Source: Methanothermobacter sp. (lineage in GTDB: Archaea; Methanobacteriota; Methanobacteria; Methanobacteriales; Methanothermobacteraceae). Taken from it: 32,000 bases of DNA. Shown one piece after another: positions 1-32,000 of the stretch; positions within the stretch are counted from its first letter, which is position 1, and each line of letters starts with the position of its first letter. Made by a program: the position numbers and the translations under genes. Under the pieces are notes generated by a model. It was not told where the DNA came from, searched no databases, and saw nothing but the letters and a program-made list of their open reading frames with translations. The DNA lies in the NCBI RefSeq assembly GCF_030055435.1, contig NZ_JASFYG010000001.1, positions 50,154 through 82,153 of the forward strand, written 5' to 3'.

Positions 1-182
1 GCTACCCCTACGGGCTGGTGGACGTGGACATGAGGGCCCGTGTCTCAGGGGATGAAGTTGAAATCTACAGGAGAAGAGTCCTATCACAGATCAGGGATGG
101 TGAAGTCCTTAAGGGCATAAAATATGAGACAGAAAGTCTCGATTACCACGATACACTTAACAGGTATGCAGGTGAATATTAA
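1..182 (+). CDS. nurA: NurA-like 5'-3' nuclease, C-terminal fragment (gene begins upstream of window)
   Basis: Frame 3 is open from the window edge to TAA at 180-182. Translation: [59 protein letters not shown]. The YPYxL...D..A stretch and the position directly upstream of herA-mre11-rad50 fit archaeal NurA. The assignment is from memory and only 59 codons are visible. The stop overlaps the herA ATG (TAATG). Confidence 0.6.
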
Positions 183-1705: not shown

Positions 1706-1715
1706 GGTGAAACTG

Positions 1716-2972
1716 ATGTACAGATTCGCGCACCTGTCAGACTGCCACCTGGGGGCCCAGAAACAGCCTGAACTCCGGGAACTGGAATTCCAGGCCTTCA
1801 GGATGGCACTGGATGATGCACTGGAGAATAATGTCGACTTCATGATAATAGCGGGGGACCTCTTCCACTCCAACATCCCAAACATGGAGACCGTCAAGAG
1901 GGCCACACTGGAACTCAGGAGGGTCAGGGATGAGGGGGTCCCAATCTACGTCAACTATGGCAGCCACGACTACAGCCCATCAAACACCTCCATGATAGAC
2001 ATCCTGGAAACCGCGGGGGTCATAGAAAAGGTTGTGCGCCCCATCCCAGGAAAGAAGCTGGGACTGGAGTTCACGGTGGATGAGAAGACCGGGGCAAAGA
2101 TCACGGGCCTATCAGGGAGGTCAAGGGCACTGGAGGTTGACTACTTCAGGAACCTTGACAGGGAGGCCCTTGAGGCCGAGGACGGCTTCAGGATATTCCT
2201 CTTCCACAGCGCCATAACCCAGTTCAAGCCCGTTGATTTTGCAGAGATGGACTCCATCGACCTCAACCTCTTCCCCCGTGGCCTGGAGTACTATGCAGGG
2301 GGCCACCTCCACAGGAGGGGCTGCTACCTGGAGGAGGGCTACGGCCCCATAGTATACCCTGGGGCACTCTTCGGTTCATACGCAGGGGACCTTGAGGAGA
2401 ACGCCAGGGGAGAGGAGAGGGGGTACTACCTTGTTGAATTCAGGGAAAAGGCAAAAACTCCCCAGTTCAGGGTTATAAGGCCCGCTGAATTTGAATACAT
2501 AGAATGTGATGTGACAGGTAAGAACTCCCAGGACGCATCCCTCCTTATACGTAAAGAAATGGGGGAACACGATGTCAAGGGAAAGGTTGTGATGTTCAAG
2601 ATCAGGGGTGAGCTCAGCTCAGGGAGAACCTCGGACATAGATTCAGCATGGATAAGGAGGGAACTTGAATCCAGGGGGGCCCGTGTTGTCCAGATCAACA
2701 GGCACGGCCTCAGCACCCGTGAGATACAGAAGGTGAGGGTCGCTGAGAGCGAGATCCCTGCACTTGAGAGGAGGATCTTCAGGGAGAAACTCGCCGGAGT
2801 TGACATCAGAAACAAAAGTCTCATGAAGAGGGGCGACTCACTGGCGGTTGAACTCCTCAGGAAACTTGAAAATGAGATTGCCCCCGGTGAGAAGAAGGAA
2901 GAATATGAGAGGAGGGTCATTGAGGAAGCAGAGGCCGTCATGGGGGTGAATCTGGATGATGATAACCGATAA
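1716..2972 (+). CDS. mre11: Mre11 DNA double-strand-break repair nuclease
   Basis: Phosphoesterase motifs occur in Mre11 order: [35 protein letters not shown]. The ORF track starts at GTG 1707, but that codon lies inside the SD GAGGTGA (1704-1710). ATG 1716 follows the SD by 5 nt, so I prefer it. Confidence 0.9.
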
Positions 2973-3042
2973 CCCCCGGAGAGATGATGGTGTTGACCTG
3001 CTCGGGTGAATCCAGATAACTGATAGCAGGTGGTGATATTCT

Positions 3043-5556
3043 TTGATTATCAATTCACTTGAACTCAGGAACATAAGGAGCTATGAATCAGGAACTGTTG
3101 AGTTTGATGATGGGGTGACCCTCTTTGAGGGGGATATAGGTTCAGGTAAGACGACGCTTCTACTTGCAATAGAATTCGCGCTCTTCGGGCTGGGTGACCA
3201 GAGGGGTGACAGCCTTCTGAGGGCCACAGCAAATTCAGGTTCAGTCAAACTCACCTTCACTGTTGACGGTACAGAGTACACCATCTACCGGGAACTTAAA
3301 AGGGCCGCCTCAGGGGTGCAGCAGGGGGAACTCTACATCAGAACACCCACAGGGAGAAGGAAACTCTCTGCAAAGGAACTGAAGGCCGAGGTACTTAACA
3401 TCCTGGGTTACAGGGAACCCCTGAATCCAAGGGCCAGGAGCAGAATATACCGTTACGCGGTCTTCACCCCACAGGAGCAGATGAAGAACATAATAGAGAC
3501 CGGAAAAACTGACCGGCTTGAAAGGCTCAGAAAGGCCTTCGACCTTGAGAAGTACAGCAGAGCAGCTGATAATGCCAAACTGCTTTCAAAGAAAATAAAG
3601 AGATACGCAGAAAGCCTTGAGGATAGATCCTACGACCTTGAAGATAAGAAAAAGGAGCTCCAGAATATTATCACTGAGAAGGGGGAACTGAAATCTGAGA
3701 GGAAGCAGCTTGAAGATGAACTCAGAGAAATCGAGGCTGAGATCAGCAAACTCAAACTGAAACTTGAAGAACTCGAAAAGGAGGAAAAAAGGATTCAGAA
3801 TGCGGATGAGAAGATAAAATCCCTTCAGAATGAAATTAAAAACCTGAGTTCATTCTCAGATAGTCTCAAGAGGAAAAACAGGGACATAGAGGAAGAATAT
3901 AAGAAATCCATGGATGAACTTCAGAAATGCCAGGATGTGAAAGATAAGCTTCAGAAGAAACTTGATTCACTCAGAAACGATATTGAAAAGATGAAGGATC
4001 AGAAAAAATCCATCAAAGAGGACTATGAAAAGTTCAAAGATGCTTCTAGTAAGCTTGAAGGCCTTATGAATCAATTTAAGACCCTTTCAGGTGTCAGGGA
4101 CAATCTGGAACTTGAAATCACCGCAATTAAGGGTGAGATTGACGACCTCAAATCAGAGATAAGAAAACTGGAGTCCCTTGAGGATCCAGGGTACACTGAG
4201 GATGAATTGAAAACTGAGATAGATAAACTTGAGGGCGAGGTATCGAATCTCCAGCATAAGATGGGCGCCATTTCCGGAAAGATAGAGGACTACATGTCCA
4301 TAAAAGATGTTAGTGTCTGTCCCACATGTGACCAGGATGTGGACCCTGCGTACATAGACGATAAACTCAGAGATGCCCGAAAGAGGGAAAGGTCATTTAA
4401 ATCCAGGATAAATGAGCTTAAAGTGAACATTAAAAATAAAAAAGAACTCCTGAAACGTGTAATAGAATACATGAGGTCCAGGGAAGAACTCAGTAGACTC
4501 CGGAAGGACCTTAAGAAGAAAACAGCCGAATATGAGAAAAAGCAGAAGGACTTTGAGAATAAGAAGGAAGAAATCAGGGGCATTGAATCAGATATAAACA
4601 AAAATGAAGAGATAATCAGTGAACTGAAGGATGCGGAATCCCGTTTTAGAGAAATTGAGGAGGAGCTGGAAACCCTCCGTGAAAGGGAGAAGAACTGTTC
4701 AAGCAGACTCTCAGCATCAGATTCGAAGATAGATGACCTTGAAAAAAGAATTCATGAACTCAACCCTGAAACCAGCAGGGAATACAGAGAGAACCTCCAG
4801 AAGATTAATGAAAATGCTACGATCATCGCTGAAAAGAAAGAGGAAATAAAGAAAAACCAGGAGGCACTTAAAAACAGGGATAAGGTGGAGGCCAGTATAC
4901 AGGATGTAAGTAGAAAACTCCATGAACTTGAAACCTCTGAGAATGAGAAAAGAAAGATTCTGGGATCAGTTGGGGGGAAAATCGAGGAAAAGGAGAGACA
5001 GATCCGGAAACTTGAGGATGAAATTGATGAAAAGAAGAGACTCAGAAAACGTGCCAGTGAACTCAAGGACCATGTGACCTGGCTTGAATCCTACTTCATC
5101 CCTGCACTCGCTGACATTGAAACCCATGTGATGGCACAGATAAACCATGAGTTCAATGAGAGGTTCCAGAAATGGTTCAGGGTCCTGGTGGATGACCCCG
5201 ATAAATCGGTGCGGATTGACGAGGACTTCACACCCATCGTGGAGCAGGACGGCTACGAACAGAACCTTGAGTACCTTAGTGGTGGTGAGAGGACCAGCAT
5301 AGCACTTGCCTACAGACTCGCCCTCAACATGGTGGTCCAGAGTCTGAGCGATGTGCGGTCTGATATACTTATACTGGACGAGCCAACCGATGGCTTCAGC
5401 AAGGAGCAGCTCTACAAGCTCAGGGATATCTTCGATGAACTTGAGGCCAGACAGATAATCCTGGTATCCCATGAGGAGGAACTTGAAAACCTTGCAGACC
5501 ACATATACCGGGTTGAAAAGTTCGATGGGGTATCAACCATCCGGAAGGCGGGATAA
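3043..5556 (+). CDS. rad50: Rad50 ATPase (SMC-like, zinc-hook coiled coil)
   Basis: 837 aa with a TTG start 5 nt after GGTGGTGA. Walker A is [11 protein letters not shown] and the Q-loop is FTPQEQ. A long K/E-rich coiled coil carries a central CPTC zinc hook (nt 4318-4329). The ABC signature is LSGGERTS, Walker B is ILILDEPT and the H-loop is VSHEE. Confidence 0.95.
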
Positions 5557-12206: not shown

Positions 12207-12353
12207 GCAGCATCACATGCATAAGTGGTATATATGAATAACCCATAATAATACAGATTGGGTATTTTAATTTACCTGCTGTATCATCACAAAACTATTA
12301 CTTCATGACCATATCCTAAAACAGATTTATGGGTGCATAAATTGATCAGGAAC

Positions 12354-15350
12354 ATGAAAGTGCTTGTGCTTGGAGCTGGAAACGCTGGTAGACCCGCCGC
12401 AAGATTGCTGAGATACCTTGGAAACAGTGTTCTTGTAAATGACCTAAGGGAACTGGATGAACTGCCCCCCAAGGCCAGGAAGAGAATAGATGAAATGAAA
12501 AGGGAGGGTGTAAGGTTCAGGTTTGGGGGTCACAGGATTGAAGACATGCTCTGGGCTGATGCCGTCTTTGTATCACCCAGCATACCCCCTGATGCACCGG
12601 TACGTGGGATGCTGGGGAGTGTGGAGAAGGATCTGATCCACATAACAACCTCGGATATAGGGAGGACCCTGAACCAGCTTATAGGCATACCCATGGTGGG
12701 AGTTGCAGGTACAGACGGGAAGACAACAACCACCAACATGATAGACCACATACTTTCATCACGCTACAGGACGGTGTCATTCTCATCGATCCAGGACTCA
12801 CTTGTCATCGAGGGACTTGTTGAACTTGTGGTGAATGGTGATGTGAGTAACAGGGACATGGCCGTGTTTGAACTCCCACACGGGACCATAAGGATGGCTG
12901 ATGGCCTCGAAATAGTTGCTGGTGTTGTGACAAACCTCACACCCGACCACATGGATGAGTTCAGGGACTATGATGAATACATTGAGAGGAACTTCTCAAT
13001 AAAGAACCTCATAGCCCCAGGGGGTGTTCTGGTCCTCTGTGGAGATGACCCGGTAATCGCAGGGCTCCTGGATGACCTTGAGGTTAAAAGTATTGTCTAT
13101 GGTCTGGGTAATGAAAGGAAGGTTGAGTTCATGGACAGAACCTTCAGTGGCTCGGCAGAACCACAGGTCAGTGCAACAGACATAGACCTCATGGGTCTCG
13201 AGGGCTCGGAGTTCACACTGAAGGTATCAGAGATACCGACTGCCCTCTGCAGCACCTGCGGATCTTTAAGCTGTGAGGAACATGATGGAGTGGTCCATGT
13301 CGGCCCCCTTACAGAGAGGATAAAACTCAGGGTGCCCGGTCTCTTCAACGTGGAGAACGCCCTTGCAGCCATAACCGTTGCACTGGTACTCGGATTTGAC
13401 ATTAAGGATATCAAAAATGTATTAGAGAAATTCAGGGGTATAAAGGGTAGATTTGAATTCATAGATGAGGTTGATGGTGTGTCTGTTTATATGGACGCAG
13501 CCCACAACCCTGAGAGCATGGAGAAACTCTTTGAGGGCATTGAATTTAAGGGGAGGCTGATAATAAGCCTGGATAACCCCGACACCCTCACAGTGAGGGA
13601 TAAGTACAGGATAGGCCAGATACTTGGCGAAAAAGCCGATATACTGATTGTGAGCGGCAAGAATGAAACAACAGGCATAATTGATATGGAAGCAGCCTCT
13701 GAGGTAGAAAGGGGGGCCGGTAGAGATAAAACCATAAAGACCGAGAGCGTATATGATAGCATAAGGAGGGCCCTTGAAATCGCAGAAAAGGGGGATACGG
13801 TACTCCACCTGGGTCCCGGGGTTGTCAACGCCTATGATAATGTGAGGAATGATATTGAGAGGGCTATAGAGTCAATGAGGGACTTTATAGTTGTCCTCGG
13901 GGGCTGCGGAAATGTTGGAAGCCTCATGGCAAGGAACCTCAGGGCGAGGGGTTACCGGGTAATTGTCTCGGATCTCAAGGAAAGCACACCCCTCGAGGAT
14001 GTCTTCAGGGATGAGGGAATAGAACTTGACCTTGGGGGTCACAGCATGGAGGTCCTCAAGCGCGCTGGCACCATAGCCATCACACCAGCCCTCGAGAATA
14101 ACAGGAAGGTTCTTGACCTTATCAGGGGACTTGAAGCTGATGTTATAGGCGTTGAGGACGTCCTGAACATGTGCCCTGTTGAGAAACCCGTGGTTGGAGT
14201 CACAGGGACCAATGGAAAGACCACAACCACAGGTATTCTCAAATCCATAATGAGGGCTGCCGGAAAGACTGTGCCAGAGCACCACCTCAACATACAGGGC
14301 AACACTGAACTGGTACCGGCCCTCCAGGCAAGGCTCCCGGGGGACGTGGCAGTGGTTGAGATAGGAACATTTGGGAGGAGGGACGAGATAAGGCAATCGG
14401 CCCTTCTCGCAGGGGTCTCAGTTGGTGTCATAACCAACATATCAAGGGACCACCTTTCAGGTGGAAGGAGGTTCTCTGATTACATAGAATGTAAGAGGGA
14501 AATCATTGATACAGCTGAGGTCATGGTACTCAACGCCGATGACCCCATCGTGGCATCATTCGCAGAGGGACTGAGGGAGGAGAGAGCGGTGCTATACGGT
14601 ATTCAGAGCATGGACTCTGCCACAGTGATGCCAGAGGGGAGGGAATGCCCCAAATGTGGTAACCCACTCAAATATACGCGCAGAACCATGGGGCATATGG
14701 GGGACTACCACTGTGTCTGCGGATACAGGAGACCCCAGCCTGAGGTCATGGCACTGGAGGCATCTGCAGATGGATTCAAACTGGTGATAGGCTCCGAGAT
14801 GAGGGATGTGAAATTGAGGACACCAGGGATCTTCAATGTCTACAATGCACTGGCAGCTGCTGCCACTGCCTGGTCCCTTGGCGTGGACATGGATGATATA
14901 GTGAGGGGAATTGAGTCATTCGGTGGTGTGAGGGGAAGGTTCCAGAAACTGATGGACTCACCCCGCGTTATACTCGACTACGCCCACAACCCCGCCGGTG
15001 TGAGGGCTGTGATGCAGGAGCTTAAAGATACTGATGGGAGGCTGATAGTCGTAAACACCGTGGCATCTGAGAGCGGAATCGATGGTGATCTGGAAATTGC
15101 ATCGCTCCTTAGGGATTCCGATACGGTTATACCGGCCTCCTATGCTGCAAGGAGAGCCTCCAGTACCCTGGGTAAGAGGGTTGTCCATATAGAATCCAGC
15201 AGAAAACGTGCAGGAGGGGGGACCCTTGGAGCGAGCCGTGAACAGGTTGAGGAGGCTGTCAATAAGGCCCTTGAAATTGCAGAACCAGATGACACAGTAC
15301 TCATAATAGGTGAGGGGGGATTCAGATATGCAGAGGATTATATCAGGTAA
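12354..15350 (+). CDS. Tandem double Mur-ligase fusion protein (two complete ligase modules; module 2 MurT-like)
   Basis: Module 1: MKVLVLGAGNAG, GVAGTDGKTTTTNM, NLTPDHMDEFRDYDEY, DAAHNPES. Module 2 begins at the in-frame ATG 13875: MRDFIVVLGGCGNVG, GVTGTNGKTTTTGI, NISRDHLSGGRRFSDY, DYAHNPAG. Module 2 also carries the Cys4-type ribbon CPKCGNPLKYTRRTMGHMGDYHCVCGY (14646-14720). The track start GTG 12333 is possible; I prefer ATG 12354. Confidence 0.85.
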   Translation: MKVLVLGAGNAGRPAARLLRYLGNSVLVNDLRELDELPPKARKRIDEMKREGVRFRFGGHRIEDMLWADAVFVSPSIPPDAPVRGMLGSVEKDLIHITTSDIGRTLNQLIGIPMVGVAGTDGKTTTTNMIDHILSSRYRTVSFSSIQDSLVIEGLVELVVNGDVSNRDMAVFELPHGTIRMADGLEIVAGVVTNLTPDHMDEFRDYDEYIERNFSIKNLIAPGGVLVLCGDDPVIAGLLDDLEVKSIVYGLGNERKVEFMDRTFSGSAEPQVSATDIDLMGLEGSEFTLKVSEIPTALCSTCGSLSCEEHDGVVHVGPLTERIKLRVPGLFNVENALAAITVALVLGFDIKDIKNVLEKFRGIKGRFEFIDEVDGVSVYMDAAHNPESMEKLFEGIEFKGRLIISLDNPDTLTVRDKYRIGQILGEKADILIVSGKNETTGIIDMEAASEVERGAGRDKTIKTESVYDSIRRALEIAEKGDTVLHLGPGVVNAYDNVRNDIERAIESMRDFIVVLGGCGNVGSLMARNLRARGYRVIVSDLKESTPLEDVFRDEGIELDLGGHSMEVLKRAGTIAITPALENNRKVLDLIRGLEADVIGVEDVLNMCPVEKPVVGVTGTNGKTTTTGILKSIMRAAGKTVPEHHLNIQGNTELVPALQARLPGDVAVVEIGTFGRRDEIRQSALLAGVSVGVITNISRDHLSGGRRFSDYIECKREIIDTAEVMVLNADDPIVASFAEGLREERAVLYGIQSMDSATVMPEGRECPKCGNPLKYTRRTMGHMGDYHCVCGYRRPQPEVMALEASADGFKLVIGSEMRDVKLRTPGIFNVYNALAAAATAWSLGVDMDDIVRGIESFGGVRGRFQKLMDSPRVILDYAHNPAGVRAVMQELKDTDGRLIVVNTVASESGIDGDLEIASLLRDSDTVIPASYAARRASSTLGKRVVHIESSRKRAGGGTLGASREQVEEAVNKALEIAEPDDTVLIIGEGGFRYAEDYIR

Positions 15351-21301: not shown

Positions 21302-21628
21302 TCAGAGATGGAGTATGAAGTACTTCATTGCCTTTGTGAGTATACCCATTCCCACACCAGCTGCAAGGCCGGTTGAAAATCGCAGGAGATTGTTGCTTTC
21401 CCTGTAACCAAGTAGCTGTGTGAATCCGTCAAGGAATGTTGGTACTATCATAACTAATGCTGCTATTATCAGGGTGATATCATATTCAATCACTGTGAGG
21501 TATGCGTATATGAAGTATGAAAATGCACCTGTATATATGCCGGTACACCTTGAACATACAGGAAAATAGTGACCCCTTACTGAAAATGTTCTCTCTGGTT
21601 TTCTGTGGCACAGGTACTTCAGTTTCAT
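21302..21628 (-). CDS. DUF2085 family membrane protein
   Basis: CHRKPERTFSVRGHYFPVCSRCTGIYTG is the DUF2085 signature (CHQ.peRsF...fPvCaRCtGiy), followed by 3 TM segments. Confidence 0.8.
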   Translation of the reverse strand: MKLKYLCHRKPERTFSVRGHYFPVCSRCTGIYTGAFSYFIYAYLTVIEYDITLIIAALVMIVPTFLDGFTQLLGYRESNNLLRFSTGLAAGVGMGILTKAMKYFILHL

Positions 21629-22064
21629 CTGGACAACACCATCTCTGAAATGTCAATCAGGACAATTACTTAATTGATATCTCATTATATTTAAATGTTA
21701 ATCTTTTTCATTTACATTAATAAATTTTTTAGGGATGCGGGATAATCAATTTCATCATGAAATTCGCTGAAAATGTCCATTAACTTCATATACCTTATGA
21801 CAGATGATGGCCGAAGGATGATAAAGCACACATCCTCTGAATGGTATGAGCAAATTCGGTATAATCAAAGAGGGAATATACATTTTTTCACTGACACCTT
21901 CAATATAATTCCAGGATTTGGAATAAAAAAGAGTCTTTTCTGAATGTCAAGTAACATGGAGGAAAATATATATAGAATGATTAGAATAAGATAGCACAAT
22001 ATGTAATGAATTGTTTTCCCTCAACAAATCTTTGTGATAGGAAAATTTAAGGGAAGTGATAATA

Positions 22065-22658
22065 ATGGATACGACACTGATATCTACAATATACTCCATT
22101 GAGCCGGTGATGTTCTGTATAACACAGTTCTCACCAAAAAAGGTTGTACTGCTCAAGGAGGATAAGGCGCCGAGGGAGAAGGAACAGGTTGAACAGGTCC
22201 TCAGGGACACCCTGGGCAACTTCCTTGAGATAACAACCTTTGAGACGAGTCTTTATGATGTTGTCACCATTGCAAAAGATATGGTTGAGATCATAGATGA
22301 GGAAAGGGCCAATGGAAGGCGTGTCGTGGTTAATATAAGCGGTGGCAGGAAGACCCAGGCGCTCGGCGCACTCTTTGGCTGCTATGCAAGAAACCATGAT
22401 GTCCAGCGCATAGTATACGTGACTGAGGAGGATAACGAACTCATAGACCTCCCAATACTTAGCTTCGGGATCTCCAAGACCAAAAAACAGGTCCTTGAGG
22501 AACTCAAAGCCGGTGAAACATCGGTTAAGAACCTTGCAGTCAAGATAGGTATAAGCAGGGGGATGACCTACAACCACATAAGGGAACTCCGTGACATGGG
22601 GTTCATAGACCGTGAAAAGCTTGAAATAACCTCTGCAGGCGAACTTGCAGTGCTTTAA
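22065..22658 (+). CDS. CARF/Csa3-like ligand-binding domain fused to winged-helix DNA-binding domain
   Basis: The N-terminal Rossmann-like domain ends in the Gly-rich loop [21 protein letters not shown]. The C-terminal wHTH reads [34 protein letters not shown] 22065 lies 5 nt after GGGAAGTGA; the track start GTG 22056 lies inside the SD. Confidence 0.55.
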
Positions 22659-22704
22659 ATCATTTTCATGGACACATCTTAACCTAGGAATTAAAGTGTC
22701 CTCA

Positions 22705-23571
22705 ATGCCAATAATCTCTTTAAACAGGACAAAAGATTTTTTTGGAAGAGAAAAGGAGATAAGAAGAATTAATGAAGCCCTCAATGACCCCGGATTTGTG
22801 GTTGTGACGGGTAAGATGGGCTCAGGGAAAACCGCTATTCTCAGGAGAATCCAGGAGGAAAACTCCAACAGGACGACCTTCATTGATATGAGGTGCACCG
22901 ATATCAGGAGGTCCCATGAGGGCATACCTGACTTCAGGAGGATAAAGATCCTTGCAAGAACCTTGGAGTGGAATATACTCCTTGACAGTATGCCTCCTGA
23001 GAAGTCATCCCTAATTGATGCATGGAAGATGTCACAGATGCACTGTATGCGGTGCGCTGTGGCGGTGAGGTACAGTGCAGCACTTATCAGGGATATTCAG
23101 GAGGAACTACCCAGGGCGGCTGTTGTTGAGGTGCCACCCCTCACAGAAAGAGACACAGAAAGGTACATAAGGTTCAGGGCACCGGCTTTCAGGGCTGTCA
23201 GGGCTGGAATAGAATATATCCATGAGGTCACAGGGGGCATGCCTCTATTCATTGACAGCTTCCTGAATGTCTTATCAGATGGAATCATATATGGTCCAGC
23301 GCTCCTTGAGGAGAACTTCAAGGCAAAGTTTCAGCAGATAGCCTTTCCATGGATCGCTGAACTTAACCGCCTGACCCTGAGGGAAAAGAATATACTGAGT
23401 CTCTTAAAGGACGGTCCCCTTGGAGGGGATGAAATACCTGCCAGTAGCAGTGAACTTCGGGAACTTGAACTCAGGGGCCTCATTGAGCTTCATGGAAATA
23501 GCTGGAGTCTCGGCTCAGAGCTGCTCAGAAGGGTCATTGTTGAACTTGAGAATCAGACGGGATGTATCTAG
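22705..23571 (+). CDS. P-loop ATPase of the archaeal ATPase (AAA+, PF01637-like) type with C-terminal wHTH-like domain
   Basis: FFGREKEIRRINEAL...FVVVTGKMGSGKTAIL is the Walker A region. NILLDS is a possible Walker B. VEVPPLTERDTERYI and VTGGMPLFI follow. The C-terminus reads LTLREKNILSLLKDGPLGGDEI...LELRGLIEL. The start is ambiguous among TTG 22645, GTG 22696 and ATG 22705. Confidence 0.65.
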   Translation: MPIISLNRTKDFFGREKEIRRINEALNDPGFVVVTGKMGSGKTAILRRIQEENSNRTTFIDMRCTDIRRSHEGIPDFRRIKILARTLEWNILLDSMPPEKSSLIDAWKMSQMHCMRCAVAVRYSAALIRDIQEELPRAAVVEVPPLTERDTERYIRFRAPAFRAVRAGIEYIHEVTGGMPLFIDSFLNVLSDGIIYGPALLEENFKAKFQQIAFPWIAELNRLTLREKNILSLLKDGPLGGDEIPASSSELRELELRGLIELHGNSWSLGSELLRRVIVELENQTGCI

Positions 23572-23600: not shown

Positions 23601-26600
23601 TTATCTGCCCCTCCAGTAACCGAATCCCACAAGGAACACAAGGGCCACAACACCTAGAAGTGCGTAAAGTGGCACCTGGGTTTCTGATGATCCGCTCTGG
23701 GTTGATGCTGAAACCTCATATGCTTTACCTGAGTCAGCACCCTTTTCTGTTTCACCAGGAGTAGCTTGACCCTGACTTTCAGCCGCTGAACCTGATGATC
23801 CTGTGTATGATTCACCTGATGAACCTGAGGGTCTCTGTCCTGTCATCCCGGCACTTTCACCATTACTGTCTGAACCTGAATGGCCTGGATTCCCTGAACC
23901 TCCTTCCTGTGGTACATCGACTGATGCGCCTGTTGCAGCTGCAAGGGCAGAGGCAAACCTTTTGAGGGATGCCTGGTTGACCGAGGAGACCTTAACAACC
24001 CAGTTATTGAAGACTATATTTGCACAGGTATGATGGCAGCACACCACACCATACTCTCCTGCAAGTTCAATGTAGCGGTTTGCAAGGTCCCTCAGGACAG
24101 CCTTATCTGCATTCCAGATGTTTCGCCTTGCAGCCTCAAGGACCCAGGCGATCATTGACTGGGTTGCAACAGCCTCATAGTCCCCTGATGCCCTGAACCT
24201 GTCACTGAGGAGGTTCAGTGCAAGCTGGTTCCACAGTTCATTGCTCACAGCACCTGTTGTGACGGCCATACCGAAGACATTCTTGTACCTTGAGGCGTAT
24301 TCCAGCCAGCCGCTTGGTGAGCTGAGGAGTGAGTCCATGTAGCGCGGGTTGAGGAGCTGGGATCTCACCTCAAGTTCAATTTCCTCTGCAACGGTCCTGA
24401 CTGTAACCGTTTTTCTGTTCCGTATATCCACCAGTGCGGTGTCAGGGTTGCCGCCGAGGTGGCGTGATGCAAGAACCATTCCACCGAACCAGTCATAGTA
24501 GTCGTCTGTGTCAATGAGCCTCCAGGTGCTGTCCAGGTTCTGTGTAACAAGGTTCACCTTACCCAGTAGGTACTGGAAGGTGCCCCTGTTCTGCTGTATA
24601 TCCACTCCCCGGGGGGTTGACCTCCAGGCATAGGAGACCCTTGAGAGGTAGACATCTGCAAGTTCAGCGCTGGTATTCCACCTTGAGGTTGCCGGTGTCA
24701 TATCTGATACCCCTGTACCCTCAAGCACGAGCCCCCTGAGTCCAAAGACACGGTCCAGTGAGCCGCATTCACTGTAGTGCCTCTTAACATAGTTTTCGGT
24801 GTCATTTGCCTCTGCAGCCATCTTAACAGCGGCGTTCATGAGGTCTATCCAGAGCTGGTTACCTGTGACGGCAGTTACAAATACGTCGATGCGCGGCCTT
24901 GGTATTTCAACGCCGTTCACTGTGATTCTGAGTTCTGATGCGTCCATGAGGACAGGTTCAGGTTTGACGTCACCGTTGGTGTTCCACTGGGGCTTAACCC
25001 CGAGGAGGTACATGAACTCTGCAATGGCAACCCCATCGGTCCTCAGAAGCTCTGTACCCCACATCACCATTCCGATGAGTTCAGGGAATTTTCCGTGCTT
25101 CATGTAGTACTCTGCAAGGAGGGTGTCTGTGATTTTCTTTGCGGTCTCCCAGGCGGCCCTTGTCGGCATCTTCTTGGGGTTGGTGGCGTAGAAGTTGGCG
25201 CCTGTTGGAAGCACATCACACCATGCAGGGTCACCTGCAAGGCCTGGCCTCACAAATCCACCTCCAAGGGCTGAAAGCAGGCTCTGCCATTCGGTGTTTC
25301 CACGTATCTTTCTGATCGTCTCATTGATGAATTCAAGGTCGGTGCCGTTTATACCTGCAGGGGCAGTGCCGTTTATGATGTTCCTGATCCATGTCCGTGC
25401 AAGGTTCTTGACCGAGGCTATCTCGTCACTGTATCTCAGGGGGTCCTTAAGCATTTCAGTGTAGACTGGCTTTGAGGGGTAGAGGGTTTTCCTGATGTTC
25501 TCCAGGAACTCTGACCTTGATGATGCTATGGTGAGAACCTCCTCAACCAGCTCCTCACCATCAAGCACCCTTCCCAGGCTGTGAAGTCCCAGGGGGATTA
25601 TGTCTGATTCTATCTCATGGAGACTGAGGTGGAGCCTCTCCAGGGCATCTGTGAAGTTTCCTGACATGTTGAAGCCCATCTCTGAGGCTCTGGATCTGAT
25701 CTGGGACTCAATGGCCGGGAGTATCTGGCTGTTACCAACCTTCAGGGCGTTCTCGTACTGGTGGATGAGGTCATGTATCTCAATGAGTTTACCGTAGAGT
25801 CCGCTCTCCACCATTGCAGGGGTCATGTGGTCGATTATGAGTGCCCCGCTCCGGTCCTTTGCAACCATGCCCTCCCCTGGATTTGAGACTATGTAGGGGT
25901 AGATGTTTGGTATCCCTGTGAGCTGGAATGGCCAGTCATCCTCCATGAGCCCTATCATCCTTCCAGGGAGGAACTCCAGTGTCCCGTGGGTTCCAAGGTG
26001 TATCATTGCATTTGCCCCGAAGACGTTCTCCATCCACCTGTAGAAGGCTATGTACTGGTGGTGTGGCGGCAGGTATGGGTTGTGGTAGTCTGTGACCTCA
26101 TCCCATCCACGTGCCGGCTGGACCGTCACGAAGATGTTCCCCAGCATTATACCCGGTATCACTATGCTGCCGTTCACCGTCATTATGTTGCCTGGTGCGG
26201 CCCCCCATTTTGATAGGACCTCTGACCTGAGTTTTTCAGGGAGTTTGCTGAACCATTCCAGGTATTTCTGCACATCAAGGAGCTGCCCGCTGGCCTGCAG
26301 TTCTGCCCTGTGCTCACTCACGTACCTCTCAAGGAGTGGCTGTGCCCAGGTACCCTTGTTACCAAACTCTGAGACTATCCTGTAGAGCTCCTCCACGTCG
26401 GGTATCCTTTCAACCCTGTAGCCTGTCTCGTTGAGCTTCACCAGGAGGTCGTGGAGGCTCCTGAAGACGTCCAGGTATGATGCCGTGAACCCATCCTTCC
26501 CCGGTGGGTAGCTGTAGAGTATCACCGCGATTTTCTTATCTGAATTGCTGAGTTCCCTGAGCCTTGCCCATCCATCGGCCAGTTTGACGATCTTCTCCAC

Positions 26601-28061
26601 ACCCTCATGAACCACAACCTCATTCCATGATGCGTCGGTGTAGGACACAACGATGGGTGAGAAGACACCCTCGAACCCGGGTATCGTGACCTGCCATGTC
26701 CATTCGTACTGGGCACCCAGCGGGTTTGTGAGGCTTGAGTTGCTGTAGAGCTGCACCCCCTTGATCACGGGGATGTTGATCCTCTCAAACTCTGCTAGCG
26801 CCCCACCTGATGGCAGGTTGGCGTAGTTGAGTGACCAGGAGTAGAGGGATATCACCGCGTCTATCCTCCTTGTGAGGGGCCCCTTACCGTTAACACCAAG
26901 GGCGAGTTCCTCAAGGAGTGAACTCACAGCAGGGTTTGTGGCGCCCTGGTAGAGGTTGAATATGGCCCTTCCCTGTTTCTCTGCCTGGCGTATTATCGCG
27001 TCCACGGTCGGTGATGGATTGTAGCTTACAACGACGATGAATGGTCCTGTCATGTTTTTGTTTGCTGTGTACCAGTTCTCGAACTGTCTGTAGATATCTG
27101 CCCTCTGGTCTTCCGCCCATGCCGAGAAGTTCTGGTCTATCCATCTGAGGCTGTCATATGGTGGTATGAGACCAGGGTTGCCCTCTATCCAGGCCTTTAT
27201 TCTGGATCTTTCTGCAACCACACTCATGACTCCAAGGTCAGGGTGGTAGAGTCCCCAGTCAGGGGCTGCCATGACCGGCCCCTGATTGTTCTCAACCGGG
27301 TTGAAGGTGGTCTCACCGAGGAGGTACTGGATGTACTTTATCATGTTCTCCAGGTTCTCCCTGGCTGCCCCTCCTGATGCGAGGGCGTAGTAGCTTGCAA
27401 TGTAGGTATTCTCCACTGTGTCCGGTGTGTCATTTCCTGGTGTTCCGCCGAGGAGGTTCAGACCTGTTCCACCGTAGGGGTCAGTGTCTGTGTCTGTTGG
27501 GTAACCGAAGGCAGCTGCTATCATGTTTCTCTGGTTCGCGGGACTCCTCAGGAGGTATGGATACCAGGAGTCGCCCCAGCCTGTCCCGGGCATTGCCATG
27601 TCCAGGTAGGCGAAGTTCACGTGCTCCATGATCCAGTCACTGGCCGCTGAGGATGGGTCCCACATGTCATGGTAGATTATCCTCCTGTTACCCATTGACT
27701 TCAGTATGCGTCCCTTCTCAGGGACCGAGCTTATGATGGCTATATCCGGCATGAATGTGTGGTTCAGTGTTTGGCTTGAGGTCACGGTGTATGTCACTGG
27801 CCGGTAGGTGTGGTAGCTTATCCTCACCTCAACGGGGAATGTGTCACTGAATGTAACCCTGTAGGATCCGTCTGCCGCTGTTCGTGTTTCATTGATAACC
27901 GAACCATTGTATATCACGGTGATGCTTGCATTCTTCACCGGCAGTGCATCCTGGAGTGTGGTGTATCCTCCTGATGTTTCATTGTAGATCTCCTTTATAT
28001 GTCCTGAAACCTCCGCTGCGCTGGCTGTCCCTGTCAGTGCAACTGCGAGTATTACCGCCAT
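23601..28061 (-). CDS. Giant exported, C-terminally membrane-anchored CobN/Mg-chelatase-H-like protein
   Basis: 1486 aa. The signal peptide is (KRFITV)MAVILAVALTGTASA. A CarboxypepD_reg-like beta-sandwich is suggested by KNASITVIYNGSVINETRTAADGSYRVTF. The CobN core includes IHLGTHGTLEFLPGR (compare CobN HxGxHGxLEWLPG). The C-terminus has a CCHHTC motif, an S/G/P-rich linker, GKAYEV...PLYALLGVVALVFLVGFGYWRGR (TM plus basic tail) and many N-x-S/T sequons. The real start may be ATT 28082 (see findings). Confidence 0.85.
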   Translation of the reverse strand: MAVILAVALTGTASAAEVSGHIKEIYNETSGGYTTLQDALPVKNASITVIYNGSVINETRTAADGSYRVTFSDTFPVEVRISYHTYRPVTYTVTSSQTLNHTFMPDIAIISSVPEKGRILKSMGNRRIIYHDMWDPSSAASDWIMEHVNFAYLDMAMPGTGWGDSWYPYLLRSPANQRNMIAAAFGYPTDTDTDPYGGTGLNLLGGTPGNDTPDTVENTYIASYYALASGGAARENLENMIKYIQYLLGETTFNPVENNQGPVMAAPDWGLYHPDLGVMSVVAERSRIKAWIEGNPGLIPPYDSLRWIDQNFSAWAEDQRADIYRQFENWYTANKNMTGPFIVVVSYNPSPTVDAIIRQAEKQGRAIFNLYQGATNPAVSSLLEELALGVNGKGPLTRRIDAVISLYSWSLNYANLPSGGALAEFERINIPVIKGVQLYSNSSLTNPLGAQYEWTWQVTIPGFEGVFSPIVVSYTDASWNEVVVHEGVEKIVKLADGWARLRELSNSDKKIAVILYSYPPGKDGFTASYLDVFRSLHDLLVKLNETGYRVERIPDVEELYRIVSEFGNKGTWAQPLLERYVSEHRAELQASGQLLDVQKYLEWFSKLPEKLRSEVLSKWGAAPGNIMTVNGSIVIPGIMLGNIFVTVQPARGWDEVTDYHNPYLPPHHQYIAFYRWMENVFGANAMIHLGTHGTLEFLPGRMIGLMEDDWPFQLTGIPNIYPYIVSNPGEGMVAKDRSGALIIDHMTPAMVESGLYGKLIEIHDLIHQYENALKVGNSQILPAIESQIRSRASEMGFNMSGNFTDALERLHLSLHEIESDIIPLGLHSLGRVLDGEELVEEVLTIASSRSEFLENIRKTLYPSKPVYTEMLKDPLRYSDEIASVKNLARTWIRNIINGTAPAGINGTDLEFINETIRKIRGNTEWQSLLSALGGGFVRPGLAGDPAWCDVLPTGANFYATNPKKMPTRAAWETAKKITDTLLAEYYMKHGKFPELIGMVMWGTELLRTDGVAIAEFMYLLGVKPQWNTNGDVKPEPVLMDASELRITVNGVEIPRPRIDVFVTAVTGNQLWIDLMNAAVKMAAEANDTENYVKRHYSECGSLDRVFGLRGLVLEGTGVSDMTPATSRWNTSAELADVYLSRVSYAWRSTPRGVDIQQNRGTFQYLLGKVNLVTQNLDSTWRLIDTDDYYDWFGGMVLASRHLGGNPDTALVDIRNRKTVTVRTVAEEIELEVRSQLLNPRYMDSLLSSPSGWLEYASRYKNVFGMAVTTGAVSNELWNQLALNLLSDRFRASGDYEAVATQSMIAWVLEAARRNIWNADKAVLRDLANRYIELAGEYGVVCCHHTCANIVFNNWVVKVSSVNQASLKRFASALAAATGASVDVPQEGGSGNPGHSGSDSNGESAGMTGQRPSGSSGESYTGSSGSAAESQGQATPGETEKGADSGKAYEVSASTQSGSSETQVPLYALLGVVALVFLVGFGYWRGR

Positions 28062-28129: not shown

Positions 28130-28206
28130 ATATTTAAAATTAACTTTAATTATTTTAAAACAAATTTTAAATATGTTTATTCATATGGTCCGATTAAATG
28201 CCTTTG

Positions 28207-28328
28207 CTGATAATAAAAGAAGTTGATGGGGTTTTCAGGTTATTTGGCGGGGATTCTTTAGTATTCACTGATAATAAAAGAAGTTGATGGGGTTTTCAGG
28301 TTATTTGGCGGGGATTCTTTAGTATTCA
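28207..28328. repeat. Perfect tandem duplication, 2 x 61 bp, plus a degenerate third copy (28329 to about 28366)
   Basis: Units 28207-28267 and 28268-28328 are identical: ctgataataaaagaagttgatggggttttcaggttatttggcggggattctttagtattca. The next roughly 38 nt (gtgataataaaagaggtgattggagttaaaggtggtgg) are about 75 percent similar and overlap the 3' end of the 28354 gene. Confidence 0.95.
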
Positions 28329-28353
28329 GTGATAATAAAAGAGGTGATTGGAG

Positions 28354-29439
28354 TTAAAGGTGGTGGCTGTTTCTCCTCATGGTCTCAGCCCTCTCCCTGT
28401 AACCTCTGATACCTCCGCTATCCTCCTGTAGGTTGAAGAACACCGAGTGTATGACCTCACCTGCATGTGTCAGGGCCGAGCCCACAAGACCCTCGGCAGT
28501 GTACCTGTGGTCTATCCCGTAGCCGGGGGATGGGTAACGGTGTTCCTCTGCGTTCATGATCCTCTCAATGAAGCCATCGGGGTCCACAGGGTCGTATTTT
28601 ACATCATCATGGAGCATGGCCTCGATTGCATAGCTCTTTATGATCTTATCATGGAGTTTCCTGTAGGCTGAACTTCTTGATACAAGTTCAAATCCTGCAA
28701 TTCTACCGTTGATTGCAACAAGCACTCCGTTCTGCTCTTTAAGCGGTTTGAATGGTTTTTTGAATTCCTCCAGTGTCTTTCTCTTCTTTCTGTAGGCATC
28801 TGCCATTGCACCTGTTTTTGAGGTTGAGCCGGCCCTCCTGTGGAGCCTGTTAACCTCATCCCATACGCTGCTCTGGCGTGAGCAGTACGCCGTCAGTAAC
28901 TCTTCCTGGTTCCTGATATTGATCTCCCTGATATCCTCAAAGGTGTCACGTATGACATGCTCATCCTCAGGGGCATCATCTATTTCAGCGCTTCTACCAA
29001 TGTTCTCAAGGTTCTCTGTCACGGTCCTTGTCTTGGTAACCCTTACGTTGAGTGCAGCCACCCTTTCAGGGTCCCTGAACTCCTTTGAGGTGTAGGACCA
29101 TCTGCCCTGCTCCACGCAGCTTACAGGTATCATGGTTTCTGACTTCTCAGGCAACAGAACTGTGACGTTGGCCACACGGTTCTGCTTGGCACCCTCCAGT
29201 TCCTCCCCGTCAATTATGAGTACGGGTTCATCAGCCCGGTTAACTGCAAGTACCGTGGGTACTGAGCCATATTCGTCCACCTCACCTATACTTATGAGGT
29301 CCTTGCTCATGGCATCTCTCAGTGTAAGGTAGTTCTGGCTCCCCTCAGGCGCCCTCACCGGGATGACCTCCATCTGACCTGAAACCTGGGGTTTGAGGAA
29401 CTCCAGGCTATCAAGACAGCTCTTGACTATCTCATTCAA
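28354..29439 (-). CDS. GAKQNR-motif protein (ARPP-1/DUF6569-like, assignment from memory)
   Basis: The N-terminal domain reads MEVIPV...NYLTLRDAMSKDLISIGEVDEYGSVPTVLAVNRADEPVLIIDGEELEGAKQNRVANVTVLLPEKSETMIPVSCVEQGRW. This matches my memory of the ARPP-1 family pattern (YLTL.EA...G...V.E....G.V..L.V.N....PVLLLDGEEL.GAKQNR..N....). TTG 29439 lies 4 nt after AGAGGTGA (29451-29444); the track start TTG 29454 overlaps that SD. Confidence 0.75.
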   Translation of the reverse strand: MNEIVKSCLDSLEFLKPQVSGQMEVIPVRAPEGSQNYLTLRDAMSKDLISIGEVDEYGSVPTVLAVNRADEPVLIIDGEELEGAKQNRVANVTVLLPEKSETMIPVSCVEQGRWSYTSKEFRDPERVAALNVRVTKTRTVTENLENIGRSAEIDDAPEDEHVIRDTFEDIREINIRNQEELLTAYCSRQSSVWDEVNRLHRRAGSTSKTGAMADAYRKKRKTLEEFKKPFKPLKEQNGVLVAINGRIAGFELVSRSSAYRKLHDKIIKSYAIEAMLHDDVKYDPVDPDGFIERIMNAEEHRYPSPGYGIDHRYTAEGLVGSALTHAGEVIHSVFFNLQEDSGGIRGYRERAETMRRNSHHL

Positions 29440-29490
29440 AACATCACCTCTCAATGTTAACAGCCAGATAATTCACTCTGGATCTAGTTA

Positions 29491-30761: not shown

Positions 30762-32000
30762 CTACCTCCCGGTACCCTTAAGGTAACCGGCTCCAAGGAG
30801 TGCGACAATTGAAACTATACCCAGTATGGCGTAGAGTGGAGTTTCAGTGGATCCGGAGTTGCTGTTACTTGATGCTGCGACCTCGTATGCCTTACCAGAT
30901 TCTTTACCGGTCTCTGAAGGCGTATTCTGAGATTTTGCTGAAGCCTCCTCTGAAACCGCAGATACGCTCCTACCAGGGCTGATATGTCCCTCTGATCCCC
31001 CAGGTGTGGATGGGTTCTGTGATCCCCCGGGCCTGCCCTGTGTAACATCAGGCGTGGGATCTCCTTCCACCTGAATGGCAGCCCCTGTGGCGTACCTGAA
31101 TTTCTCAAGGAAGGTCCTGAGTTCAGCGGAATTCAGTGAGGAGAGCTTCAGTATCCAGCTGTTGAGCTGGATGTTACCGCAGGTGTGGTGGCAGCATGCA
31201 ACACCGTACTCACTGGTTGTCCTCACGTAGATATCTGCCAGCATCCTCAGGGTCTCCCTGTCGGCATTCCAGTAGCCCCTCCGGGCGGCGTTTAGGAGTG
31301 TGCCTGTTATACTGATGAGTGCATATGCATTCTTCCCTGTTGAAAGCCATTCCCTGACTCCGAGACAATATCTGTCCCTTATATAGATATTCACTGCTTC
31401 GTTCCACATGGAATCAGTCACAGCGTCTGGTACTGTCACCTTCCAGCCCCAGAGGTTCTCAAAGAAGTTGCCTGATATGTAACTGGCGCCGGCATAGCCC
31501 TCCCGCATCATGGCACTGATCCATTCCCTGTTGAAGAACTTGCTGTGCAGGTCCCTGAGGATGAACTCTGAGAGCGTGTCGATGCCTGGTTTTGCCGGGT
31601 TCACCTGGTTCAGTATGAAGAGTTCAGGTCTCCTTCCTTTCACCCTCTCAACAGCAAGGCTGAAACCGCCAAGGAACTCGTAGTTATGGTCCAGGTCCAG
31701 GACTCCGTGTTTTGTATCTGAACGTGAATGGTAAACCCCGTCGATGTCCCTCAGCCTCCTTGTGAAGATCTCTGTGTTGATGGATCCCCAGTCGTCCTCC
31801 CGGTAGGAGTACTTCATGTCTGAGATGAAGGCGTCGCCGAGTTCCAGTCTGTCACTCCAGGTATCTGAGAGCTGTGCACCTGTTCTAACACCTGATGACC
31901 CCCACTCGCCAGGTGGAGGACCGAATATCCTGCTCACAGCCATCCTACCCGCCTCTGAAGCTCCAAAGTTCTTCGAAAGAAGAGCCTCTGTGTCGCTGAG
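30762..32000 (-). CDS. Second CobN-like paralog, C-terminal about 410 aa (gene continues beyond window end)
   Basis: The frame stays open to nt 32000 (..LSDTEALLSKNFGASEAGRMAVSRIFGPPPGEWG..). It is collinear with the C-terminus of the 23601-28061 protein: YGVACCHHTCGNIQLNSW vs YGVVCCHHTCANIVFNNW. It has the same S/G/P linker and the same GKAYEV...PLYAILGIVSIVALLGAGYLKGTGR anchor. Confidence 0.85.
   Translation of the reverse strand, partial: LSDTEALLSKNFGASEAGRMAVSRIFGPPPGEWGSSGVRTGAQLSDTWSDRLELGDAFISDMKYSYREDDWGSINTEIFTRRLRDIDGVYHSRSDTKHGVLDLDHNYEFLGGFSLAVERVKGRRPELFILNQVNPAKPGIDTLSEFILRDLHSKFFNREWISAMMREGYAGASYISGNFFENLWGWKVTVPDAVTDSMWNEAVNIYIRDRYCLGVREWLSTGKNAYALISITGTLLNAARRGYWNADRETLRMLADIYVRTTSEYGVACCHHTCGNIQLNSWILKLSSLNSAELRTFLEKFRYATGAAIQVEGDPTPDVTQGRPGGSQNPSTPGGSEGHISPGRSVSAVSEEASAKSQNTPSETGKESGKAYEVAASSNSNSGSTETPLYAILGIVSIVALLGAGYLKGTGR

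Follow-up and report, generated by a model that had tools for sequence, protein, structure and literature searches.

A Csa3 ortholog and its candidate ATPase partner encoded away from cas genes in Methanothermobacter sp.

Two adjacent genes were analyzed in a 32,000-nt stretch of a Methanothermobacter sp. genome (assembly GCF_030055435.1, contig NZ_JASFYG010000001.1, positions 50,154 to 82,153 of the forward strand), hereafter the window, in whose coordinates positions are given. The first open reading frame (ORF1) encodes the ortholog of Csa3 in Methanothermobacter; Csa3 is a transcription factor that forms dimers and consists of a CARF domain and a winged helix. The second (ORF2) codes for a minimised P-loop ATPase that is most likely a lineage-specific accessory to Csa3. 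The csa3 gene described here is an already annotated, known kind of regulator in the usual dispersed position for the order. What is modestly new is the minimised ATPase partner, probably deficient in hydrolysis, and a diverged adenine-stacking motif in the putative ligand pocket. A gene of the CARF and winged-helix type without cas genes nearby is no evidence of an unknown signalling system, and relatives of this one are located in CRISPR loci. The explanation that we favour, and consider fairly probable, is that the Csa3 ortholog senses cyclic oligoadenylate (cOA) and acts in trans, with ORF2 as a Methanothermobacter add-on modulator.

The Csa3 ortholog and its links to CRISPR-Cas

The csa3 gene and the part of its product that would bind the ligand are:

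22065-22658, plus strand: csa3 (ORF1, 197 aa), transcription regulator with a CARF domain (aa 1-~132) and a winged helix (aa ~133-197)
22323-22379, plus strand: CARF ligand-binding segment (aa 87-105) with the signature N90-x-S92-x3-K96, as located on the AlphaFold2 (AF2) model

NCBIfam, PADLOC, Pfam and Foldseek agree on the CARF/Csa3 identity of ORF1, which an earlier sequence-only reading of this DNA had proposed, and a Rossmann family other than CARF is not indicated. The NCBIfam model TIGR01884 (cas_HTH, Csa3) matches aa 1-195 of the 197 with 186.1 bits (cutoff 60.2; E 4.6e-55), the PADLOC CARF3 model PDLC01849 covers the entire protein (1-197 of 197; E 1.5e-98), and the PADLOC CasR models match it at E 7.6e-56. 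Pfam cutoffs are passed for HFX_2341_N, Cas_APE2256, HTH_24 and HTH_5, the last two in the winged helix (28.6 bits versus a cutoff of 21.9, and 25.2 versus 22, respectively). In the AF2 model, obtained with a predicted local distance difference test (pLDDT) score of 89, the N-terminal domain comprises alternating beta and alpha elements, while the winged helix consists of helices 138-148, 154-161 and 165-178 followed by the wing; this second domain is basic (isoelectric point, pI, 9.2). The best PDB matches of the model in Foldseek are the Csa3 structures 6wxq, 2wte and 6w11, followed by the cOA-binding Cam1, Can2, Csm6, Card1 and ring nucleases, with a probability of 1.00. RefSeq already uses the name "CRISPR-associated transcriptional regulator Csa3" for the protein in M. 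thermautotrophicus, M. wolfeii, M. defluvii, CaT2, K4 and others.

The closest structural match of ORF1 is provided by Csa3a/Csa3b of Sulfolobales (Sso1445; 2WTE, 6WXQ, 6W11), which resemble it in size and in the two-domain architecture of CARF and winged helix, and share with it the NCBIfam family TIGR01884. The sequence identity is, however, only 14-16%, and ORF1 remains below the cutoff of Pfam Csa3_N (14.1 versus 27). Unlike csa3 of Sulfolobales, the gene for ORF1 is not located beside type I-A adaptation genes, no CAPPa operator was found in the window, the protein is conserved in the whole order at a very low ratio of nonsynonymous to synonymous substitution rates (dN/dS), and in one genus it has an ATPase partner encoded downstream. 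The action of Sulfolobus Csa3a in trans on distant promoters fits the place of the ORF1 gene away from cas genes.

A protein search with ORF1 retrieved 554 homologs, of which the best 120 of the 554 are 68-97% identical to it. A scan of species-representative genomes revealed 80 csa3 loci with 54-98% identity, in Methanothermobacter, Methanobacterium, a few Methanobrevibacter, Methanobinarius and Methanorudis; the recovered loci are labelled by L-numbers (L003, L079 etc.). Methanobacteriales have a single Csa3 ortholog, under unusually strong constraint and mostly far from cas loci.

Within the 32-kb window there is neither a cas gene nor a CRISPR array, and Cas10, tRNA and Rfam matches are likewise absent. 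The sequence-only reading, which had correctly noted the lack of cas genes, a CRISPR array and Cas10, took the gene for an orphan of unknown input. This view finds no support, given the RefSeq name and the copies of the same clade that are located beside CRISPR-Cas operons. In L079, csa3 (62% identical) adjoins a CRISPR array of 12 repeats and an operon of type III-A (Cas10/Csm1, Csm2-5), and in L020 and L017, the two copies of a single Methanobacterium chromosome, type I-B operons (cas6, cas7, cas5, cas3) run divergently from csa3. Cas genes were found within 10 kb in at least 7 of 85 csa3 loci, a number that is a lower bound because the cas queries were limited to types I-B and III-A. The cas-adjacent copies have the same pocket residues as the protein of the window and a recognition helix identical to it, a match that speaks for a common ligand and DNA target.

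The type III system of M. thermautotrophicus DSM 1053 includes a Csm6 that is activated by the oligoadenylate A4>P, and a review lists M. thermautotrophicus with type I-B, III-A and III-C systems. In a metatranscriptome study of this species, csa3 was reported to be induced together with cas1, cas2, cas3 and cas6. In S. islandicus, Csa3a binds distant promoters in trans, including that of the DNA-repair operon nurA-mre11-rad50-herA. Because of the CRISPR links of the clade, the type III system and Csm6 of the genus, the co-induction and the trans action of Csa3a, a cas-free window of 32 kb does not imply an unknown signal, and we infer that a location away from cas genes is the normal position of csa3 in this clade.

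The loop that the sequence-only reading had assigned to the CARF ligand-binding site does lie there in the model, at aa 87-105, covering predicted beta4, the beta4-alpha4 loop and most of alpha4 of the Rossmann-like domain. Across the order the segment shows little or no variation (alignments A1 and A5), and in Methanothermobacter and Methanobacterium both the loop NISGGRKxQALGxLFGCYAR and the recognition helix are invariant. Owing to this invariance the pocket is clearly functional. The general CARF signature, defined as (D/N)-x-(S/T)-x3-(R/K) (PMC8844856), is present as N90-I-S92-G-G-R-K96 between beta4 (86-90) and alpha4 (96-108). Residues N90, S92, G94 and K96 are invariant in the orthologs from Methanothermobacter and Methanobacterium (alignment A1), and K96 is replaced by Arg in the Methanobrevibacter-like copies.

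The contacts of Csa3Sso with cA4 involve motif 1, Phi8-G9-F10-(N/D)11-x-zeta13-F14, motif 2, pi94-(pi/Phi)95-G96-Phi97-R98, and Glu122 (PMC8844856). The positions of the two proteins that correspond by predicted secondary structure are:

Motif 1: Csa3Sso M8-G9-F10-N11-E12-T13-F14, ORF1 T8-I9-Y10-S11-I12-E13-P14; Gly9 and the second stacking Phe14 are lost, and only the aromatic residue at position 10 is kept
Motif 2: Csa3Sso T94-M95-G96-M97-R98, ORF1 S92-G93-G94-R95-K96; the essential Gly is apparently kept, with Lys in place of Arg and Arg at the hydrophobic position
Acidic residue: Csa3Sso VYVRDE122, ORF1 VYVTEE122; apparently kept, in the beta5-beta6 loop

Sequence and profile searches of the PDB with ORF1 failed to reach Csa3, hhalign aligned ORF1 and Csa3Sso in the winged helix-turn-helix (wHTH) alone, and their global pairwise alignment scored only ~2.5 standard deviations above shuffled sequences and misplaced motif 2. 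Sequence methods thus being unreliable for these two CARF domains, the motifs were mapped by predicted secondary structure, with the Csa3Sso sequence verified against the PDB. The mapping of motif 1 is positional, not a structure superposition, and relies on the end of beta1 at residue 8 in both proteins and on a gap-free N-terminal alignment. The ligand for which the pocket is specific would presumably be cA4.

In L084, L080 and L083, which belong to Methanobrevibacter cuticularis, Methanorudis and Methanobinarius (alignment A5), the pocket sequence SGGRK is changed to SGGER (SGGERPQ) and VTEED is lost, a VDYFKK-like sequence being present instead, while the invariant recognition helix is kept. 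This pattern suggests that the ligand is altered or lost and the DNA target unchanged in these three lineages.

The minimised ATPase downstream of csa3

Downstream of csa3 the following features were recognized:

22659-22704, plus strand: spacer between csa3 and the ATPase gene, 46 nt, with no T-run longer than 4
22705-23571, plus strand: ORF2 (288 aa, ATG at 22705), minimised PF01637-type P-loop ATPase with a C-terminal winged helix, containing FFGREKEI and GKMGSGKT
22810-22833, plus strand: Walker A motif GKMGSGKT, aa 36-43, following beta1 (alignment A2)
22972-22989, plus strand: Walker B strand NILLD followed by Ser, aa 90-95; Asp94 is kept and the catalytic Glu is absent (S95)
23368-23568, plus strand: C-terminal winged-helix-like domain, aa 222-288, acidic and shortened; in the AF2 model helices 225-234 and 248-256, strands 260-263 and 266-269, and helix 272-285

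The coordinates of both open reading frames, their 46-nt spacing, the FFGREKEI and GKMGSGKT motifs and the C-terminal winged helix of ORF1 had all been given in the sequence-only reading and were found as described there. ORF2 passes the cutoff of AAA_16 (44.4 bits versus 32.6), whereas PF01637 scores below its own (30.1 bits versus 33.2) and covers only aa 12-55. The AF2 model (pLDDT 86) has a complete five-stranded core (beta1 31-36, beta2 57-61, beta3 90-94, beta4 116-122 and beta5 139-143), followed by a helical lid and the winged helix, and the only disordered stretch is the loop 66-73. The best Foldseek matches of this model are 2qen and 2fna (E ~3e-10; query TM-score, TMq, 0.67 and 0.61), and after these Avs4, RuvB, RFC and CED-4.

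Among 5.8 billion clustered proteins, 11 close homologs of ORF2 were found, and those with a named source are all from Methanothermobacter. A HMMER search of 1.84 billion representatives added a single homolog of equal length, 46% identical, and yielded weak two-segment matches to proteins of ~390 aa that consist of a PF01637 "archaeal ATPase" and a C-terminal wHTH. Three of these relatives, P0134, P0135 and P0142, pass PF01637 over positions 1-224 of 225; no CARF or CRISPR link was seen in their context, their contigs being too short to be informative. A literature search on PF01637 and COG1672 gave nothing relevant among the hits listed.

Relative to the ~390-aa proteins, the ORF2 family lacks ~82 residues between beta2 and Walker B, and the disordered loop of the model is the site of this missing insert. 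In Walker A, G36, G39, G41 and K42 are invariant and T43 nearly so (alignment A2). At Walker B the orthologs read LLDS, LLDG, LIDS or LIDH, in contrast to hhhhDEFQ (IIIDEFQ) in the full-length relatives, so the catalytic Glu is absent in every member of the family. The wHTH-like segment that the sequence-only reading had noticed at the C terminus of ORF2 has the right fold but is acidic (net charge -3, pI 5.0), unlike the basic domain of the full-length relatives (pI 8.0-9.3), and it is shortened by an 8-residue gap at the junction of helix 2 and the recognition helix (alignment A2). Canonical DNA binding by ORF2 is therefore doubtful.

The closest structures, the PF01637 proteins SSO1545 (2FNA) and PAB2304 (2QEN), have in common with ORF2 the N-terminal F-x-x-R-E, the Walker A motif and the identical order of core, lid and winged-helix domains. 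ORF2 differs from them in being ~100 residues shorter, in lacking the helical insert before Walker B, in having D-S/G/H instead of D-E, and in its shortened, acidic winged helix.

Three other identities considered for ORF2 were rejected. An assignment to ORC/Cdc6 was indicated only by TIGR02928 at E 0.0096 (14.8 bits versus a cutoff of 181.3), over aa 10-62. Matches to NACHT, nSTAND and Avs4 are all below cutoff and confined to the Walker A region of a 288-aa protein that has no further domains, and the match to RtcR (E 0.069; 12 bits versus a cutoff of 650) is limited to the P-loop region. The possibility that the ATPase is a degraded ORC/Cdc6 protein without Walker B, raised along with the first description of the pair, was thus right as to the missing Glu and the truncation and wrong as to the family, and the gene is under purifying selection.

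In L004 (1211-2070) and L005 (188-1047) the ATPase gene is frameshifted into ORFs of 79 and 206 aa, the frameshift falling in the region that matches the low-confidence loop at aa 66-73 of ORF2. This is either a pseudogene in one metagenomic lineage or an assembly error that both assemblies have in common.

The ATPase gene is located directly downstream of a 197-aa csa3 wherever the context can be read, including that of the 46%-identical relative, and in several genomes the two proteins have consecutive accession numbers, which confirms that their genes adjoin. The spacer ranges from 20 to 69 nt across loci and is 20 nt in L003 and L086. Since that of the window contains no long T-run, co-transcription is likely, and the two genes are probably read as one unit. 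Outside Methanothermobacter-like genomes the csa3 loci contain no ATPase. The co-conservation of the two genes, which had been put forward as a check on the pair, therefore holds as adjacency within Methanothermobacter and fails for csa3 loci elsewhere. As the ATPase is always found with csa3, and csa3 is found alone elsewhere, the dependence is one-way, pointing to the ATPase as an accessory that csa3 acquired in one lineage. Csa3a bound its promoters non-specifically in vitro, and additional factors are probably needed (Charbonneau et al.); this makes a co-factor role of ORF2 plausible.

Mode of action and competing explanations

According to the favoured explanation, Methanothermobacter Csa3 would sense cOA, most likely cA4, produced by a Cas10 of type III whose gene lies at another chromosomal site. 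It would then act in trans on the promoters of cas genes and CRISPR arrays, and possibly on those of repair or other genes, as Sulfolobus Csa3a does. ORF2, co-transcribed with csa3, would bind ATP and hydrolyze it slowly or not at all, serving as a nucleotide-dependent partner or modulator of Csa3 via protein contacts, not via DNA binding of its own. ORF2 is in this respect a concrete candidate for the extra factors reportedly required by Csa3a for specific promoter binding. The altered adenine-stacking motif makes Csa3 of Methanobacteriales a good candidate for probing ligand specificity and regulons beyond Sulfolobales. Since cas genes are present elsewhere in these genomes, the organism could serve to test both points, given genetic tools.

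Several observations weigh against this explanation. The Csa3-specific cA4 motif 1 is not found in ORF1 by positional mapping, and in motif 2 ORF1 has Lys where the aligned Csa3 homologs carry Arg, so that a ligand other than cA4 is possible. About 92% of the examined csa3 loci have no cas gene within 10 kb as judged by the I-B and III-A queries, and csa3 lies next to pseudomurein genes, in a neighbourhood of the core genome that is conserved in part. For a gene linked to defence, its dN/dS of ~0.02 is unusually low. Upstream of csa3, no exact palindrome that could serve as an operator was found in at least 8 of 81 regions, the search being restricted to exact half-sites of 5-6 nt with at least 2 G/C and a spacer of 0-15. 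The CAPPa motif of Sulfolobales, TCCC-N8-GGGA, occurs once in the window, versus 1.26 occurrences expected, and not near csa3. The frameshift in one lineage indicates that the ATPase is dispensable there, and the interaction of Csa3 with ORF2 is a proposal.

Part of this evidence agrees with an explanation that we regard as unlikely, although the best placed of the alternatives, namely that the Csa3 ortholog has turned into a housekeeping regulator. It would then respond to a different ligand from the cA4 that Cas10 makes and regulate genes unrelated to CRISPR, for example envelope genes or the CobN-like neighbours, with the ATPase as a co-regulator in Methanothermobacter. Among Methanothermobacter loci csa3 shows a dN/dS of 0.013-0.028, indicating very strong purifying selection, and the gene is conserved throughout the order with 55-98% identity. 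The upstream order Mur ligases - MobA - DUF169 - ... - DUF2085 - csa3 is partly retained as far as Methanobrevibacter cuticularis. The divergence of motif 1, the scarcity of cas genes within 10 kb (7 of 85 loci, again as a lower bound) and the altered pocket with retained recognition helix in the termite-associated relatives (Methanobrevibacter cuticularis, Methanorudis and Methanobinarius) point the same way. Against such a role, the CRISPR-adjacent copies of the same clade carry the same pocket and recognition-helix residues, the general cOA signature N-x-S-x3-K and a putative equivalent of Glu122 are present, and all top structural neighbours are cOA-binding CARF proteins. The reported co-induction of csa3 with cas genes likewise speaks for a CRISPR function, and a non-cas neighbour conserved throughout the order, which would hint at a local target, is lacking.

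Another reading, to which we assign a small probability, also treats Csa3 as a core-genome nucleotide-signal sensor with a pocket diverged from the cA4-specific Csa3 motif, either for another second messenger or for cOA directed to housekeeping targets. In Methanothermobacter it may have recruited the mini-AAA+ protein, deficient in hydrolysis, as a factor that confers promoter specificity on Csa3 or couples its output to ATP status. If true, the pair would be a two-protein CARF/AAA+ regulatory switch, like a split RtcR. Bacterial RtcR comprises CARF, sigma-54 AAA+ and HTH modules, and the csa3/ATPase pair has, by analogy, these kinds of modules distributed over two proteins. In RtcR, however, all modules are in one polypeptide, the AAA+ domain is of the sigma-54-interaction type, and sigma-54 does not occur in archaea.

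It is similarly improbable that the ATPase gene is a decaying remnant of a full-length PF01637 and wHTH gene that was inserted by chance and is functionally unrelated to Csa3. The deletion of ~82 residues and of 8 more from the winged helix, the absent catalytic Glu, the acidic winged helix, the frameshift in L004 and L005 and the narrow taxonomic range would all be expected of such a remnant. The dN/dS of ORF2, 0.12-0.22, is about ten times that of csa3, but its being well below 1 indicates that purifying selection continues. A decaying gene is also at odds with the invariant Walker A, with the compact AF2 model whose core is complete, with the order and adjacency to csa3 that are held down to 46% protein identity, and with the short spacer.

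Least of all do we expect the pair to be a self-contained defence module of a CARF sensor and a STAND-like P-loop effector, in line with the defence pair of the sequence-only reading: the weak P-loop matches to nSTAND1, NACHT and Avs4, the presence of Avs4 and CED-4 among the Foldseek matches and the strict adjacency of the two genes wherever the ATPase occurs are outweighed by the sub-cutoff, Walker A-limited nature of the STAND matches, the shortened 288-aa ATPase without sensor repeats, nuclease, other effector domain or catalytic Glu, its absence from csa3 loci outside Methanothermobacter-like genomes and the location of the pair in a syntenic core-genome position and not in a variable island.

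Upstream DNA and neighbouring genes

The region preceding csa3, described in the sequence-only reading as an AT-rich gap of ~430 bp, measures 436 nt and contains two putative expression signals:

21629-22064, no strand: AT-rich divergent intergenic region between the DUF2085 gene (minus strand) and csa3 (plus strand), 436 nt
21961-21975, plus strand: BRE/TATA-like (B recognition element/TATA) element GGAAAATATATATAG, putative csa3 promoter, ~90 nt upstream of the ATG
22051-22060, plus strand: Shine-Dalgarno-like element GGGAAGTGAT, 4-5 nt ahead of the ATG at 22065

The GC content of positions 21501-22000 is 0.33. Across Methanothermobacter the proximal 112 nt (21953-22064) have an identity of 0.75-0.90, compared with 0.66-0.82 at third codon positions of csa3 and with 0.56-0.78, along with indels, in the distal part of the gap. 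A 56-aa ORF in the gap (21773-21943) is not conserved. Both the sequence and the location of the element GGAAAATATATATAG are conserved among loci of Methanothermobacter and nearer Methanobacteriaceae (alignments A3 and A6), and the ~90-nt leader is conserved in Methanothermobacter and nearer relatives. The Shine-Dalgarno-like GGGAAGTGAT is invariant among the aligned orthologous csa3 loci, and the alternative start codon GTG at 22056 falls within it. The k-mers enriched upstream of csa3 are mainly TATA-like. A conserved RNA structure in the 5' leader was considered and rejected, RNAalifold having given 0 consensus pairs. An inverted repeat in the leader appeared to vary in sequence by lineage, the single-sequence fold has z = -0.31, and no Rfam match was found in the leader even at E <= 1.

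On the opposite strand, a 264-aa ORF (22131-22925, minus) that extends over parts of both csa3 and the gene of the ATPase is probably spurious, in view of the strong homology and selection signals of the plus-strand genes. ORF2 converges, as had also been noted from the sequence, on a gene for a CobN-like protein of 1486 aa (23601-28061, minus). This is one of two CobN/Mg-chelatase-like genes of the window, the other being located at 30762-31943 (minus). With a CarboxypepD_reg-like domain at its N terminus and a tail rich in Ser and Gly that ends in a hydrophobic segment, the 1486-aa protein resembles one anchored at the cell surface more than a subunit of a cobalt chelatase. The intergenic DNA that separates the CobN-like gene from the gene for an ARPP-1 protein contains a 61-bp tandem repeat at 28207-28342 (2.2 copies, 98% match) and a 21-bp repeat at 28133-28179 (2.2 copies).

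The rest of the window codes for HerA-Mre11-Rad50, a 2-oxoacid:ferredoxin oxidoreductase, MsrA and pseudomurein-type Mur ligases, as well as for MobA-like, DUF169, pseudomurein-binding-repeat and DUF2085 proteins, in addition to the two CobN-like proteins and the ARPP-1 protein. Both this gene content and the names of the homologs point to Methanothermobacter. One of the Mur genes (12333-15350, plus) encodes a 1005-aa protein with two tandem Mur-ligase modules, in which Mur_ligase_M and Mur_ligase_C stretches each occur twice; the equivalent region of L088 is annotated as separate genes, for 677 and 308 aa. The HerA-Mre11-Rad50 operon occupies positions 182-5556 (plus), 16 kb from csa3; in S. 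islandicus, Csa3a directly targets the promoter of nurA-mre11-rad50-herA.

Downstream of csa3 no neighbour is universal, the gene being usually alone and followed by a convergent gene. In Methanobacterium the commonest divergent upstream neighbour is a response regulator with REC and the methanogen output domain MetOD1, whose cluster occurs in 26 loci (for example, L048 8711-9571). A protein with the ARPP-1 domain (PF20208) is encoded 1-2 kb upstream of csa3 in ~15 Methanobacterium loci, such as L012, L042, L046, L051, L054, L056, L065-L067, L069, L074 and L075; in the window, the ARPP-1 gene lies beyond the CobN-like gene, at 28354-29454 (minus). A few kb downstream of csa3, a UvrD-like helicase (cluster in 13 loci) and a PD-(D/E)XK nuclease with a C-terminal Cys cluster (cluster in 11 loci) are encoded, for example at L082 15067-17766, L081 2599-3789 and L004 7242-8070. 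These two proteins could form a repair or defence pair. In L004 the helicase and nuclease domains are present in a single gene.

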